Part shown: positions 43 to 4,389 of the stretch, piece after piece
Layout of the letters: every line of letters begins with the position of its first letter
How positions within the stretch are numbered: position 1 is the stretch's first letter
Origin: a virus
Lineage: Duplodnaviria; Heunggongvirae; Uroviricota; Caudoviricetes
Virus record (IMG/VR): IMGVR_UViG_2657245439_000012
DNA length: 4,389 nt
Strand: one strand, 5' to 3'
The notes under the pieces: model-generated
Seen by the model: the letters and a program-made list of their open reading frames with translations, nothing else
Databases searched by the model: none
Told to the model about the DNA's origin: nothing
Position numbers and translations under genes: made by a program

Positions 43-308
43 CTTACACAGCCACTGGATCGGTCAACTGATCCTTAACTGATCGGCATTACTCCGGAGA
101 GGGGCATTTTTGCATGCACATTCTTTTTCTTGCATGGTGCCGGGTGCCTCCCGGTGAATTCAGTATCAGCACCTGAATCCGCGATTATCACATATACCTG
201 GTTGCTGATTGCCCCTCCGCACAGGGGGATTCACCATGCAGTAGTATTTTTAATAAACAGCAAATAAAAAAATCAAGCATTATGCAGGCTGTTTCTTTTT
301 ATCACCGG

Positions 309-1036: not shown

Positions 1037-1858
1037 CTATCTGGTCACCTTTTTCAGTTGTTGTTCTGCCCATGCTTCTTCAATATCAAACTGCACCACC
1101 AGCGTATCGTAAAAACGTTTAACTGTTTTTTTCCATGTATCAAGAGATATGGCATCGGTTACATTACATATGGCATTAAATGCCTCCGTTGAAGGTAATC
1201 TTTCATAGCCACGACCACCACAACGCTGGCAGTCTCTGATAACAGGCATACCACGTTTTACCGACTCTTCACGATGAATGGCAACACCGCGCCCACGACA
1301 ATCTTTACAGGCAGTGGATACCTCTCCCTTCCCTCCACACTCCGGACAGGCAACTTTTACCACCTCCCTGACTTTTTTCCATTCCTCCCAGTAAGACGGA
1401 TACACGCCTTTTGTGCACTTTGCCCACACTGGCGGCTTACCATCCGGATACTGGATCTTGTTTGTAAAAACCTCGCTTTCAATAAATTTTTTTCCGTGAC
1501 AACAGGGGCACTGTTTTTTGCTCGCCGCGCTACGGGCATAATCTTCAAACGCATACGAAGCCATAATACGCATCACTGCCGGTTTTATTTCTGCCGGGAG
1601 TTTTCTTAACGCCGCCACGCGATCACACCGACTGAGTGCATATTCTGTCAGCAATTCTGTTGCCCGCTCTCTGTCATTCATACTAATGCCCATTTTCCCA
1701 AGGAACGCAGAAAACCCCATCTCAGCCCAATTCTGTGTCATGCCCTGCGCGGCCATCACATCAGTGATACTCAGCGTATCTTTCGACGTTGAGGCCGATG
1801 CATCAGTCAGGCCGGGGGATTTTGGGGAGTAGTATTTCGGTAAATCTTCCAGTTTCAT
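1037..1858 (-). CDS. Phage antitermination protein Q (late-gene regulator), 273 aa
   Basis: Track ORF. Cys-rich zinc-binding region (CPCCHGKK, CPECGGKG, CKDCRGRG, CQRCGGRG); N-terminus MKLEDLPKYYSPKSP and C-terminus KVTR resemble Qin/phage-82-type Q as far as I recall; sits directly upstream of a pR'/tR' unit and downstream of rusA, the canonical lambdoid position. ATG overlaps the rusA stop (ATGA). Confidence 0.7.
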   Translation of the reverse strand: MKLEDLPKYYSPKSPGLTDASASTSKDTLSITDVMAAQGMTQNWAEMGFSAFLGKMGISMNDRERATELLTEYALSRCDRVAALRKLPAEIKPAVMRIMASYAFEDYARSAASKKQCPCCHGKKFIESEVFTNKIQYPDGKPPVWAKCTKGVYPSYWEEWKKVREVVKVACPECGGKGEVSTACKDCRGRGVAIHREESVKRGMPVIRDCQRCGGRGYERLPSTEAFNAICNVTDAISLDTWKKTVKRFYDTLVVQFDIEEAWAEQQLKKVTR

Positions 1859-2229
1859 TTTTTGACCTGCCCTTCAAGCATTATGGGGTAAATTTTCACC
1901 CCCAGACGTCCACCAGATACTGGCTGAGCACGAACGATATTGATTTCATCAAACTGCTCATCGTCCATTAGCAACCCCGCATGCGTCAGCGCATCCAGCG
2001 GCGCTTTCAGAATATTGTCCAGGTCACGGCGGCGCTTATCCGGTGGCTCGGCAATAATCTTTATCGCCAGCCTTCCGGACAGGCTTAATTTCAGCCGCTG
2101 CTGGCGAACAATAAGCGCCACAGCCCGGCGATAACGCTCACCGGCTTTTGATACAAAATATGTGCTGCCACGACGTCGCCAGTAGGTGTTCACCGTCGGC
2201 GGGTAAAGCAAAACAAACTCTATACGCAT
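1855..2229 (-). CDS. rusA: Holliday junction resolvase RusA (crossover junction endodeoxyribonuclease), 124 aa
   Basis: Translation contains YPPTVNTYWRRRG, PDKRRRDLDNILKAPLDALTHAGLLMDDEQ and SGGRLGVKI, which align with RusA motifs (catalytic acidic residues in RRRDLDN and DD). SD AAGAGG lies 6 nt upstream of the ATG at 2227-2229; stop overlaps the Q start. Confidence 0.9.
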   Translation of the reverse strand: MRIEFVLLYPPTVNTYWRRRGSTYFVSKAGERYRRAVALIVRQQRLKLSLSGRLAIKIIAEPPDKRRRDLDNILKAPLDALTHAGLLMDDEQFDEINIVRAQPVSGGRLGVKIYPIMLEGQVKK

Positions 2230-2241
2230 CAGTAACCTCTT

Positions 2242-3291
2242 TTACCCGAGCACGCCGGTTGCAAAGGCGTGATCAAGAAAACGAAAAATTAAATCAACCT
2301 GGGAACCATGCTTTTCTTCGAACGCCAGCGGATCCGCATGAAGCTCGTTGTGATGCTCCCGACACAGCGGTAGCGTGAAAATATCGTGGGATTTTGTTCC
2401 CATTCCGCCCTGACCATGACCAATCAGATGATGAGGATCGTCCGCTGGCTTACCACAACACGCACACGGCTGTGTCTTTACCCAGCGTGTGTATTTCTCA
2501 TTTACCCAGCGGCGACGTTTAGGTCGTTTCATGAAGGATTCCGGAGACTCCGGATCAACGGCAATGCTGACCACCGTCTTTTCCTGTGGTGGGTTCTGTT
2601 GCTGGTGGGTGTGAGGCGGTAGCGCAATATTTTTTGTGCGCTGCTTCAGTATGCTGGTGGCGGTCTGCTCTCCCGGCACGATGTCGCTTTCACGGTACAT
2701 TGAGCGGATTTTTTCCGCACGCCCCCCCAGCGAACGACGTAATACCGCTTCCGGTAGCGCGTCCGCCACCTGATTGCGGACCGCCCACCAGGATAATTCA
2801 GCCAAAGATAATTCACGCTCCTGCGTACCGCTTATTGCGTGACCGATGACGTCAATCATCCATGCTGACAGGTTTTGATGAGCAAGTTGCTCGAGTGATT
2901 CGGATGTCTGGTCACGCAGCTGGTTGTCGCAGTGCCAGCACAACACCATTGCGCCGGTACCATAACGGTGAATGACAGTTTCGCTGTGATGATAATCGCC
3001 GTGTGGCCACTGGCAGGATTTAATATGGCGCAACAGCCAGTCAGACAATGCACCAGCACCACCAGCAGCACGAATCACCCGTGCGTTACTGAAAAACGGC
3101 AGCAATGTTTTGTCTTCCACCAGCGGCTGGCGAACGGCAGGAACGACCCCGGACGGCAGATTACGCATGCTTTTCGGTTCCGGCTCCATCAATACCCGGG
3201 TATTGTGGAATACTGGCATGGATTCACGGCCCGGCTTAACGATCACAAGCCCGAGTTCCGGTACCAGAACAGGTCGAAGTAATACCCGCAC
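2242..3291 (-). CDS. ydfU: YdfU-like prophage protein (DUF968 family) with C-terminal HNH-like Cys/His motif, 349 aa
   Basis: Track ORF; same length as the Qin prophage YdfU as I recall it, and in the same position between Q and rem/hok. C-terminus PCACCGKPADDPHHLIGHGQGG...LPLCREHHNELH looks like a His-Me finger (CxxC...HH...C..HH..H). The start as drawn is GTG 3289-3291 with GGAGG 4 nt upstream; the first in-frame ATG is at 3217-3219, so the N-terminus is uncertain. Confidence 0.75.
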   Translation of the reverse strand: MRVLLRPVLVPELGLVIVKPGRESMPVFHNTRVLMEPEPKSMRNLPSGVVPAVRQPLVEDKTLLPFFSNARVIRAAGGAGALSDWLLRHIKSCQWPHGDYHHSETVIHRYGTGAMVLCWHCDNQLRDQTSESLEQLAHQNLSAWMIDVIGHAISGTQERELSLAELSWWAVRNQVADALPEAVLRRSLGGRAEKIRSMYRESDIVPGEQTATSILKQRTKNIALPPHTHQQQNPPQEKTVVSIAVDPESPESFMKRPKRRRWVNEKYTRWVKTQPCACCGKPADDPHHLIGHGQGGMGTKSHDIFTLPLCREHHNELHADPLAFEEKHGSQVDLIFRFLDHAFATGVLG

Positions 3292-3292
3292 G

Positions 3293-3571
3293 TTACCTCC
3301 AGATGCGTTGCTGGAATGTGCGAGACGGACGCGGTGGGCGTTCAGAGTAAGGAAGCCTGACGGAGATTATCCAGTGACGGTAGTCGAGACTAAGGGCTTT
3401 CTTAACCTCGTATCCGCGCCTGCGGTAACACTGAATTGTCCATTCAGCCTGCTCTTCAGTACATGGAGGGTGTTGGAACCATTCAGACTTGAATGCGTGA
3501 GAATACCGCTCGTGCGTGCAGGCAAGAACGGGCGAATTATCAGAATTGTAATATTTTACGTTGCGTGCCAT
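3293..3571 (-). CDS. Hypothetical prophage protein, 92 aa, Cys-containing
   Basis: Track ORF. ATG 3569-3571 has GGAG 7 nt upstream; its TAA stop (3293-3295) lies 1 nt from the ydfU-like start inside that gene's SD, typical operon packing. No family recognised from sequence alone. Confidence 0.5.
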   Translation of the reverse strand: MARNVKYYNSDNSPVLACTHERYSHAFKSEWFQHPPCTEEQAEWTIQCYRRRGYEVKKALSLDYRHWIISVRLPYSERPPRPSRTFQQRIWR

Positions 3572-3637: not shown

Positions 3638-3889
3638 TTATTCTTCTGCAAAAGCTGAAAAGCCTGCTTTTATTCCGATCTCTTTCAGTGCCTGTAATGA
3701 AGTAACAAACTCACCTTCGCGCAAGATAAATCCGTCTGTCACTCGACCATCCACAAAATTAATTAACGCAGCCCCATTCTTTCGCAAACACATAATGCGG
3801 TAATGACTAACAAGATTTCCATTTTCAACGCACACAGCATAGAGGCCATCTTCACAAAAAATTTTACGCAGTTCTTCGATGTTCATCAT
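3638..3889 (-). CDS. rem: Small prophage protein, 83 aa; probably the Rem homologue, assigned by synteny and length only
   Basis: Track ORF. Tandem ATG ATG start with AAGGA 5 nt upstream; 83 aa and located immediately downstream of hok, matching the rem-hokD arrangement I recall for Qin. The sequence itself was not recognised. Confidence 0.45.
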   Translation of the reverse strand: MMNIEELRKIFCEDGLYAVCVENGNLVSHYRIMCLRKNGAALINFVDGRVTDGFILREGEFVTSLQALKEIGIKAGFSAFAEE

Positions 3890-3967
3890 CAGAATCCTTC
3901 CGGATAATTAGCTCTCCCCTTTAAGGGACCATCCCTCTTATCCCTGCGCGCTACTTAAGTATTTTTG

Positions 3968-3997
3968 ATTCTATTCCGGCGCCGTCCAGAACTTCAA
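3968..3997 (-). promoter_or_regulatory. Candidate sigma70 promoter for the rem-to-Q operon
   Basis: Minus strand TTGAAG (-35, 3992-3997), 18-bp spacer, TAGAAT (-10, 3968-3973), about 70 nt upstream of the rem-like ATG and just downstream of the hok terminator. Motif match only. Confidence 0.3.
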
Positions 3998-4005
3998 ACG
4001 CGTTG

Positions 4006-4036
4006 AAAATAAAAACAAAAACCCGCCGAAGCGGGT
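4006..4036 (-). terminator. Rho-independent terminator of the hok transcript
   Basis: Minus-strand RNA ACCCGC-UUCG-GCGGGU (6-bp GC stem, UUCG tetraloop) followed by UUUUUGUUUUUAUUUU; lies about 70 nt downstream of the hok stop. Confidence 0.75.
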
Positions 4037-4076
4037 TAAGTGCGGGTGCGTTGAGGATGCCTGCCACATCAGAGGT

Positions 4077-4098
4077 GGCGAGGGATTTCTCCCTCGCC
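4077..4098 (-). other. Stable stem-loop in the hok 3' UTR (possible fbi / 3'-processing structure)
   Basis: Perfect 9-bp inverted repeat GGCGAGGGA / TCCCTCGCC with a 4-nt loop, beginning 8 nt after the hok stop codon. Hok mRNAs are known to carry 3' fold-back elements; the functional assignment is inference. Confidence 0.4.
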
Positions 4099-4105
4099 GG
4101 GTCTC

Positions 4106-4261
4106 TTACTCCTCAGGTTCGTAAGCTGTGAAGACAGCGACCTCCGTCTGGCCGGTTCGGATTCGTACCTCGCAGAGGTCTTTCCTCGTTACCAGTGCCG
4201 TCACTATGACGGTTAAACAGATGACGATCAGGGCGATTAACATCGCCTTTTGCTGCTTCAT
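4106..4261 (-). CDS. hokD: Hok-family type I toxin (HokD/RelF-like small membrane toxin), 51 aa
   Basis: Translation from the internal ATG (4259-4261) gives MKQQKAMLIALIVICLTVIVTALVTRKDLCEVRIRTGQTEVAVFTAYEPEE, which matches HokD/RelF as I remember it; SD AAGGAG lies 9 nt upstream; stop TAA 4106-4108. Confidence 0.9.
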   Translation of the reverse strand: MKQQKAMLIALIVICLTVIVTALVTRKDLCEVRIRTGQTEVAVFTAYEPEE

Positions 4262-4318
4262 AGCCTGCTTCTCCTTGCCTTCCGGCACGTAAGAGGCTAA
4301 CCTACATGTGTCTAGCAT
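4106..4318 (-). CDS. mok: Mok-like in-frame leader ORF (modulator of killing), 70 aa, overlapping hok
   Basis: Track ORF begins MLDTCRLASYVPEGKEKQA and continues in frame into Hok; this resembles the MokC N-terminus (MLNTCR...KEKRA) as I recall it. GAGG lies 8 nt upstream of the ATG at 4316-4318. Confidence 0.55.
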   Translation of the reverse strand: MLDTCRLASYVPEGKEKQAMKQQKAMLIALIVICLTVIVTALVTRKDLCEVRIRTGQTEVAVFTAYEPEE

Positions 4319-4389
4319 GAAATTGGCCTCAGATTAATGTTAAGCGTCTTGCAGGACGCGTAATGTTAACTGGGGCTTTTCTCTATCTG
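4275..4389 (+). ncRNA. Candidate Sok-like antisense RNA region (promoter within the mok 5' end, transcript antisense to the mok initiation region); truncated by the window edge
   Basis: Expected from hok/sok architecture. Plus strand has a weak TTGCCT (4275-4280), 17-bp spacer, TAACCT (4298-4303), and a GCGTC-TTGCAG-GACGC hairpin at 4344-4359. No clear terminator is visible before the window ends. Confidence 0.25.

Follow-up and report, generated by a model that had tools for sequence, protein, structure and literature searches.

Among the described hok/sok-type systems, hokW-sokW of Sakai prophage 5 (Sp5; the Stx2 phage VT2-Sakai) is the natural reference for the locus analysed here. HokW is toxic and is neutralized by sokW expressed from its own promoter, and a promoter-less mutant is toxic (PMC8621323). 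The sokW RNA is complementary to the hokW 5′ UTR over 71 nt, and the toxic 'pro-less' construct involved primers YO-421/YO-422, which convert the sokW −10 element from TAACCT to GAGCCG (PMC8621323). For the hok/sok (parB) system of plasmid R1, a refolding of the hok mRNA from tac/fbi pairing to tac/ucb plus SD/dcb pairing has been described, as has a 3′ stem-loop of this mRNA (PMC9841398); the element names of that paper (ucb, dcb and the others) are used throughout. The hokC/mokC/sokC (gef) locus of Escherichia coli K-12 resembles the present one in having an in-frame mok that ends at the stop codon of hok and an annotated sokC that starts 9 nt inside mokC; it differs in carrying an IS186 element 20 nt downstream of the hokC stop. 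The K-12 hokD gene is reported to be without the canonical components and to have been inactivated by rearrangement (PMC12214031). Chromosomal hokA, hokB and hokC are reported not to mediate post-segregational killing (bioRxiv 10.1101/2025.08.07.668861), and the integrity of a hok sequence is, therefore, no proof of activity.

The window (the whole stretch of 4,389 nucleotides of viral DNA that was analysed) corresponds to the nin/Q region of a lambdoid prophage resembling Qin, and the gene order is Q, rusA, ydfU (DUF968), rem and hokD. All of its genes are located on the minus strand according to the ORF list, Pfam and RefSeq annotation, which also provided the following assignments.

1037-1858, minus strand: antiterminator Q
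1855-2229, minus strand: RusA
2242-3291, minus strand: DUF968/YdfU
3293-3571, minus strand: small hypothetical ORF
3638-3889, minus strand: rem

The region to the right of rem is, with a probability of about 0.9, a full-length hokD/sokD type I toxin-antitoxin locus closely related to hokW-sokW. Its features, with the basis for each, are as follows.

4010-4037, minus strand: intrinsic hok terminator with a 7-bp GC-rich stem (4037-4020), a UUCG loop and a U run (terminator scan)
4044-4056, minus strand: fbi (CCUCAACGCACCC), a fold-back inhibitory element whose sequence complements that of tac (GGGUGCUUGAGG) at the mRNA 5′ end (one exact occurrence in the window)
4077-4098, minus strand: 9-bp perfect hairpin just past the stop codon, with arms at 4077-4085 and 4090-4098 (inverted repeat; kept in both predicted folds)
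4106-4261, minus strand: hokD coding sequence for a Hok/Gef-family membrane toxin of 51 amino acids plus stop (ORF list, Pfam PF01848, nucleotide identity to K-12, RefSeq hokD annotation)
4106-4318, minus strand: mok-like leader ORF of 70 amino acids, which is in the hok reading frame and ends at the same stop codon (ORF list; geometry as in the MokW-like ORF and mokC)
4262-4389, minus strand: 5′ leader of the hok mRNA, except for its initial ~41 nt, located outside the window (Rfam RF01794, flagged as cut at the 5′ end)
4271-4276, minus strand: hok Shine-Dalgarno sequence AAGGAG (sequence; CAAGGAGAAG invariant in a four-locus alignment)
4275-4303, plus strand: sok promoter with −35 TTGCCT (4275-4280), a 17-nt spacer and −10 TAACCT (4298-4303) (single pattern match in the window; hexamers as in hokW-sokW)
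4293-4298, minus strand: dcb, the downstream complementary box AGCCUC (pairs with GAGGC of the mok Shine-Dalgarno sequence in the predicted 3′-truncated fold)
~4310 to 4380-4385, plus strand: putative Sok antisense RNA of ~71-76 nt, with a single-stranded 5′ tail, a long hairpin (4325-4377) and then UUUUCUCU (predicted fold; ends by analogy)
4327-4330, minus strand: mok Shine-Dalgarno sequence GAGG, 8 nt upstream of the mok ATG (sequence; GAGGC invariant in the four-locus alignment)
4335-4369: TAATGTTAA repeats flanking GCGTC/GACGC, the inner part of the Sok hairpin (repeat and fold analysis)
4370-4376, minus strand: ucb, the upstream complementary box GCCCCAG, an anti-Shine-Dalgarno sequence of mok (pairing with CUGAGGC in the predicted fold; AGCCCC invariant)

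An initial annotation of this DNA had described a hok/mok type I locus with a complete 3′ end and a cut 5′ end, comprising an intact 51-aa Hok, an in-frame Mok-like leader, a 9-bp perfect 3′ hairpin, a textbook terminator and a control region interrupted by the window edge. Pfam, Rfam, ORF, hairpin and terminator analyses supported this description throughout: an ORF runs from 4261 to 4106, an ATG at 4318 opens the 70-aa ORF ending at 4106, both arms of the hairpin are present, a T run follows the terminator stem, and the Rfam leader match is flagged as cut at its 5′ end.

The region that spans the hok promoter, leader, CDS and fbi exhibited ~93% nucleotide identity to hokW-sokW. Both systems specify a 51-aa toxin, have an in-frame 70-aa Mok ORF (annotated as a 'MokW-like' CDS), carry the same sok −35 and −10 hexamers and reside in a lambdoid prophage, and the extended Sok hairpin is the same in both except for one nucleotide in the loop. 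The Sok regions also differ by a few nucleotides between the mok Shine-Dalgarno sequence and a point just after the mok start. Further differences were detected at the C terminus of the toxin, which is FTAYEPEE in the window but FVDYESEK in HokW, and beyond fbi, where the 3′ end of hokW is unrelated and the canonical terminator of the window does not align. The genomic positions are also distinct, with the hokD of the window lying beside rem and ydfU whereas the neighbourhood of hokW in Sp5 contains none of these genes. Toxicity and its neutralization would be carried over to hokD/sokD from hokW-sokW, the only relative from which they are known.

The similarity to R1 hok/sok is one of architecture. 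The elements occur in the same order (tac, ucb, mok Shine-Dalgarno, dcb, hok Shine-Dalgarno, hok, 3′ hairpin, fbi and terminator), the boxes GCUUGAGGCU, GGCAGA, AGCCCC, GAGGC and CAAGGAGAAG are common to both and the same refolding from tac/fbi to tac/ucb is predicted. R1 Hok, however, has 43% amino-acid identity to the Hok of the window, the Sok hairpin is longer in the window than in R1, and the R1 locus is borne by a plasmid rather than a prophage. An R1-type locus (L009) was utilized for these comparisons. A second R1-type hok, from an IncF plasmid (L005, NZ_CP141206.1, 1-320), was set aside as its leader is interrupted by IS150; promoter, tac and ucb are lost from this locus while mok and hok are intact, making it a plasmid example of the insertion sequence inactivation known for chromosomal hok loci.

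The Hok protein of the window matched the Pfam HOK_GEF profile (PF01848) over all of its positions (1-42 of 42) with 82.9 bits against a curated cutoff of 22, as expected for a ~50-aa member of the Hok/Gef family. An alignment of this protein with HokW, a P1-like Hok and an R1-type Hok contained 19 invariant columns, including Cys15 and Cys30 (numbering of the window Hok). The coding sequence is the same as that of K-12 hokD at the nucleotide level, and the toxin is identical to K-12 HokD/RelF. The codon for Tyr47 (UAC) together with the following G forms UACG, a TadA A-to-I editing motif (4120-4123, minus strand), and editing would recode Tyr to Cys. The local fold around this codon contained no significant hairpin (z = −0.5). 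The K-12 hokD mRNA has been reported to be 6% edited (PMC12214031), and Tyr-Glu is kept at this position in nearly all of the Hok homologues that were fetched.

An alignment of four loci (the window, hokW, hokC and R1 hok) displayed the canonical conserved boxes of the hok family. The mok ORF overlaps hok, has its own Shine-Dalgarno sequence and starts 57 nt upstream of the hok ATG. A Shine-Dalgarno-preceded mok start was located 56 to 58 nt upstream of the hok ATG in most of ~60 distinct Hok loci. Starts at −57 are in frame and generate a Mok-Hok fusion of 68-71 aa (the window, hokW, hokC and Photorhabdus), starts at −58 are in the +1 frame and specify 50-70 aa (the R1 type and P1-like plasmids), and a start at −56 specifies a 19-aa ORF. 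The frame of mok thus varies while the position of its start is held, which suggests that selection acts on translation through the mok region rather than on the Mok peptide. R1 mok, at −58, is out of frame whereas that of the window is in frame, as in MokW and MokC, and a 70-aa Mok-Hok fusion could, therefore, arise here.

The initial annotation had left it undecided whether a functional sok is present, but the whole gene appears to lie inside the window, with the promoter followed by a start at ~4310, the hairpin and a U tract ending at ~4380-4385. The promoter was located using the hokW primer sequences and a pattern search, and was placed at 4275-4303 because both hexamers are identical to those of the mutationally tested sokW promoter. 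A generic sigma-70 scan of the window did not flag this site, whose match to the consensus is weak (7 of 12). The start was placed at about 4310 by analogy with K-12 sokC, whose annotated start aligns at 4310, and with the sokW probe YO-592, which covers the same stretch. The plus strand from 4310 had a predicted folding energy of −30.3 kcal/mol (z = −4.5), and the long hairpin at ~4325-4377 one of −32.8 kcal/mol (z = −5.8). The sequence hence contains a promoter inside mok, a terminator hairpin and a predicted transcript that covers both the Shine-Dalgarno sequence and the start of mok.

Direct repeats flanking a GCGTC/GACGC hairpin had also been described in this region. The window contains two copies of TAATGTTAA, and no others, where chance predicts 0.02; the second copy is located at 4361-4369 as described, while the first lies at 4335-4343 rather than at 4334-4342. 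The GCGTC/GACGC hairpin is real and forms the tip of the long hairpin at ~4325-4377. An exact 9-nt direct repeat flanking a palindrome, at a copy number so far above expectation, could indicate an element independent of the toxin-antitoxin system, such as a protein-binding site or a mobile-element scar, and the absence from hokC of an 18-nt extension of the stem would be compatible with such an origin. The repeats are, however, the complementary arms of one 23-bp hairpin that is followed by a U tract, this hairpin sits as a loop insertion within the hairpin modelled by Rfam, and it is conserved in the functional sokW, making an independent element very improbable. The repeats are instead the two arms of the Sok terminator hairpin, and the other strand is the hairpin of the hok mRNA that holds ucb and the mok Shine-Dalgarno sequence. 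In the predicted folds, the repeat arms pair through two G.U pairs in Sok, while A.C mismatches are found on the hok mRNA strand. The palindromic extension (4344-4361; ACGCGUCCUGCAAGACGC in the hok sense) is present in hokD and hokW and absent from hokC (L089), the 59-nt sokC having a hairpin without it; Rfam treats the extension as a loop insertion.

Approximately 90% of the hok mRNA is contained in the window (4010-4389, minus strand). The Rfam family RF01794 (sok/hok-leader) matched 4256-4389 with 71 bits, above the gathering score of 59, over model positions 41-157, indicative of a conserved structured hok leader. Although named 'sok', this family represents the leader in the hok sense, up to the hok AUG, and the strand of the match should not, therefore, be taken as the Sok strand. 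In the identical locus of E. coli E24377A, the same model scored 117 bits over positions 1-157, and the match began with GGGUGCUUGAGG, located 41 nt outside the window. Weak matches of the hok 3′ UTR to the isrK and rsmX families (25.7 and 21.5 bits) were far under the gathering scores and were rejected, as they reflect just a hairpin-plus-terminator shape. The 9-bp hairpin past the stop codon is, by analogy with the 3′ stem-loop of R1 hok mRNA (PMC9841398), probably the structure that protects the 3′ end of the processed (truncated) hok mRNA.

The missing right flank was read from E24377A (L001) and from CD45 (L002), the latter being the best match to the whole window (99.6%). Judging from these identical or near-identical genomes, the parts past the window edge would be limited to the hok promoter and the initial ~41 nt of the mRNA, which contain tac. 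A promoter-like TTGGCG-17-TAGAAT is located 48-76 nt past the edge in E24377A, and the same hexamers occur in CD45. In the source genome, both GGGTGCTTGAGG and a promoter would be expected no further than ~80 nt from the right edge of the window, in the order TTGGCG-17-TAGAAT and then GGGTGCTTGAGGCT within 30-80 nt.

The comparison with K-12 bears on whether hokD could instead be a distal member of a relBE operon, with neither a promoter of its own nor antisense control. The K-12 Qin hokD (relF) has the same Hok CDS, terminator and neighbours (rem and ydfU) as the window, its 3′ UTR is nearly identical with a single hairpin substitution, and it is located 71 nt downstream of relE. The initial annotation had allowed that relE might lie just beyond the edge. 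The alignment of the window with MG1655, however, ends ~17 nt upstream of the hok ATG, at the point where K-12 has the 3′ end of relE. Everything upstream of −17, namely, the mok start, the sok promoter and RNA, ucb, tac and the hok promoter, is missing from K-12, with relBE in its place, whereas the window contains the mok start, the sok promoter, the Sok hairpin and ucb. Since the similarity ends at this point, K-12 hokD is the truncated form and that of the window the full one; hence, the widely cited hokD (relF) is not the complete version of this locus. The sequence content of the window rules out a relBE operon for the 128 nt upstream of hok, and no relBE was detected upstream of the hok promoter in E24377A or CD45. 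These genomes carry other genes there: an AIPR protein with an 83-bit match to AbiU in E24377A (L001, 6041-7816) and Septu PtuA (549 bits) and PtuB (278 bits) in CD45 (L002, 7444-9439). With a sok promoter present in the window and no relBE in the matching genomes, the outcome that the initial annotation had named as contradicting its reading, that hok is simply the distal gene of relBE with no antisense promoter, was not borne out and has next to no chance of being correct.

The slot directly upstream of the hokD promoter contains a different defence-type cargo in each of these strains: relBE in K-12 (L003, 1847-2373), AIPR in E24377A and Septu in CD45. hokD may lie at one edge of a hotspot for variable cargo in Qin-like prophages.

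As fbi lies in the window (4044-4056) and tac ~30-41 nt past its edge, long-range pairing was computed on the E24377A sequence. The 420-nt mRNA had a predicted minimum free energy (MFE) of −176 kcal/mol (z = −8.1), and in this structure the 5′ end (tac) pairs with CCUCAACGCACCC, the tac/fbi pairing for which structure prediction had been proposed as a check. In the same fold, ucb (GCCCCAG) pairs with CUGAGGC, which holds the mok Shine-Dalgarno sequence, and the 9-bp 3′ hairpin is intact. Removal of the 3′-terminal 60 nt from the sequence resulted in a predicted fold in which the 5′ tac pairs with ucb, the mok Shine-Dalgarno sequence moves from ucb to dcb (AGCCUC) and the 9-bp hairpin is kept. 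This predicted refolding is the change described for R1 (PMC9841398).

For comparison of tac/fbi pairing, 79 Hok loci were fetched from diverse Enterobacterales. Complementarity was observed at stop+45 to stop+57 in most of the loci in which the tac motif was found, and fell into two co-varying classes, GGGUGC/GCACCC and GGCGC/GCGCC; the search pattern missed the motif in many Photorhabdus and Kluyvera loci, and covariation was sampled in ~25 distinct loci. A 14-nt tac probe was compared with shuffled 3′ UTRs, replacing a folding of long segments that inflated the duplexes. The z-scores for single sites obtained with this probe were modest (−0.5 to −4), and the argument for tac/fbi pairing is, therefore, carried by the constant position and the covariation.

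The mechanism proposed for this locus is borrowed from the R1 hok/sok paradigm and has been reproduced in silico only. A stable hok mRNA of ~415-420 nt would be transcribed from the promoter that lies just past the right window edge. In the full-length molecule, tac would be paired with fbi and ucb would mask the mok Shine-Dalgarno sequence, preventing both translation and Sok binding. Slow trimming of the 3′ end would remove fbi, allowing tac to pair with ucb and releasing the mok Shine-Dalgarno sequence into a weaker stem with dcb. Ribosomes initiating at mok (4318) would then read through the hok Shine-Dalgarno sequence, permitting synthesis of Hok, with the 70-aa Mok-Hok fusion as another possible product. 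The short-lived Sok RNA (plus strand, ~4310-4380), being perfectly complementary to the Shine-Dalgarno sequence and start of mok, would block mok translation and trigger cleavage of the duplex. If sok transcription were to stop, Hok would enter the inner membrane and depolarize or kill the cell.

The locus is widespread in E. coli. Window positions 3900-4389 shared 99.8% identity with over a thousand E. coli chromosomes in which the CDS is annotated as hokD, and at least 80% of the complete 471-nt unit, from promoter to terminator, was present in 3928 of 5426 complete E. coli genomes (~72%). hokD/sokD is hence a very common system that has already been described, and, as most E. coli genomes contain it with hardly any change, it is genuine but unremarkable. 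In these genomes, RefSeq annotation is confined to the hokD CDS, which usually leaves mok and the gene for the Sok RNA unannotated; the coordinates given here are transferable to thousands of genomes, although their importance extends little beyond correct annotation.

An intact sequence may nonetheless be physiologically silent, the locus being a never-activated remnant that hitch-hikes on a defective prophage. The often cryptic nature of Qin-type prophages, as indicated by the K-12 annotation, lends this possibility some weight. The retention of the locus in so large a proportion of genomes argues against it, as does the conservation of every regulatory element, including 100% identity of the hok unit to that of E24377A. 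Real decay, moreover, resembles the K-12 form, in which the leader is deleted. In its common E. coli version, the locus retains the complete hok/mok/sok circuit and hardly differs from hokW-sokW, which at 93% identity is active and affects phage release, speeding it (PMC8621323). A silent remnant is, on this evidence, unlikely, although it retains a real minority chance.

A full-length, regulated hokD/sokD locus would also allow a more speculative role. Like hokW-sokW, it might act as a trigger of prophage induction or abortive infection, situated at the fixed border of a variable slot for defence cargo (relBE, AbiU-like AIPR or Septu) in Qin-like prophages, with the Mok-Hok fusion and the 18-nt extension of Sok tuning the timing of the toxin. 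We regard this extension as doubtful; if true, the full hokD/sokD module would be more than an addiction relic.

Short contigs assigned to Veillonella, Acinetobacter, Xanthomonas, Streptomyces, Ferruginibacter and Oscillibacter also contained Hok loci that do not differ from E. coli hokD or R1 hok (L019, L029, L036 and L080-L082); these non-enterobacterial occurrences are most likely due to contamination or mis-binning. Elsewhere in the window, the STnc100 small RNA family (RF02076) exhibited a full-length match at 86-265 (minus strand) with 116 bits against a gathering score of 47, downstream of Q and a DUF3927 gene in the leader of the prophage late region. A promoter-like TTGAAG-18-TAGAAT, possibly the rem promoter, is located at 3968-3997 (minus strand), where it directly follows the hok terminator and precedes rem by ~80 nt.
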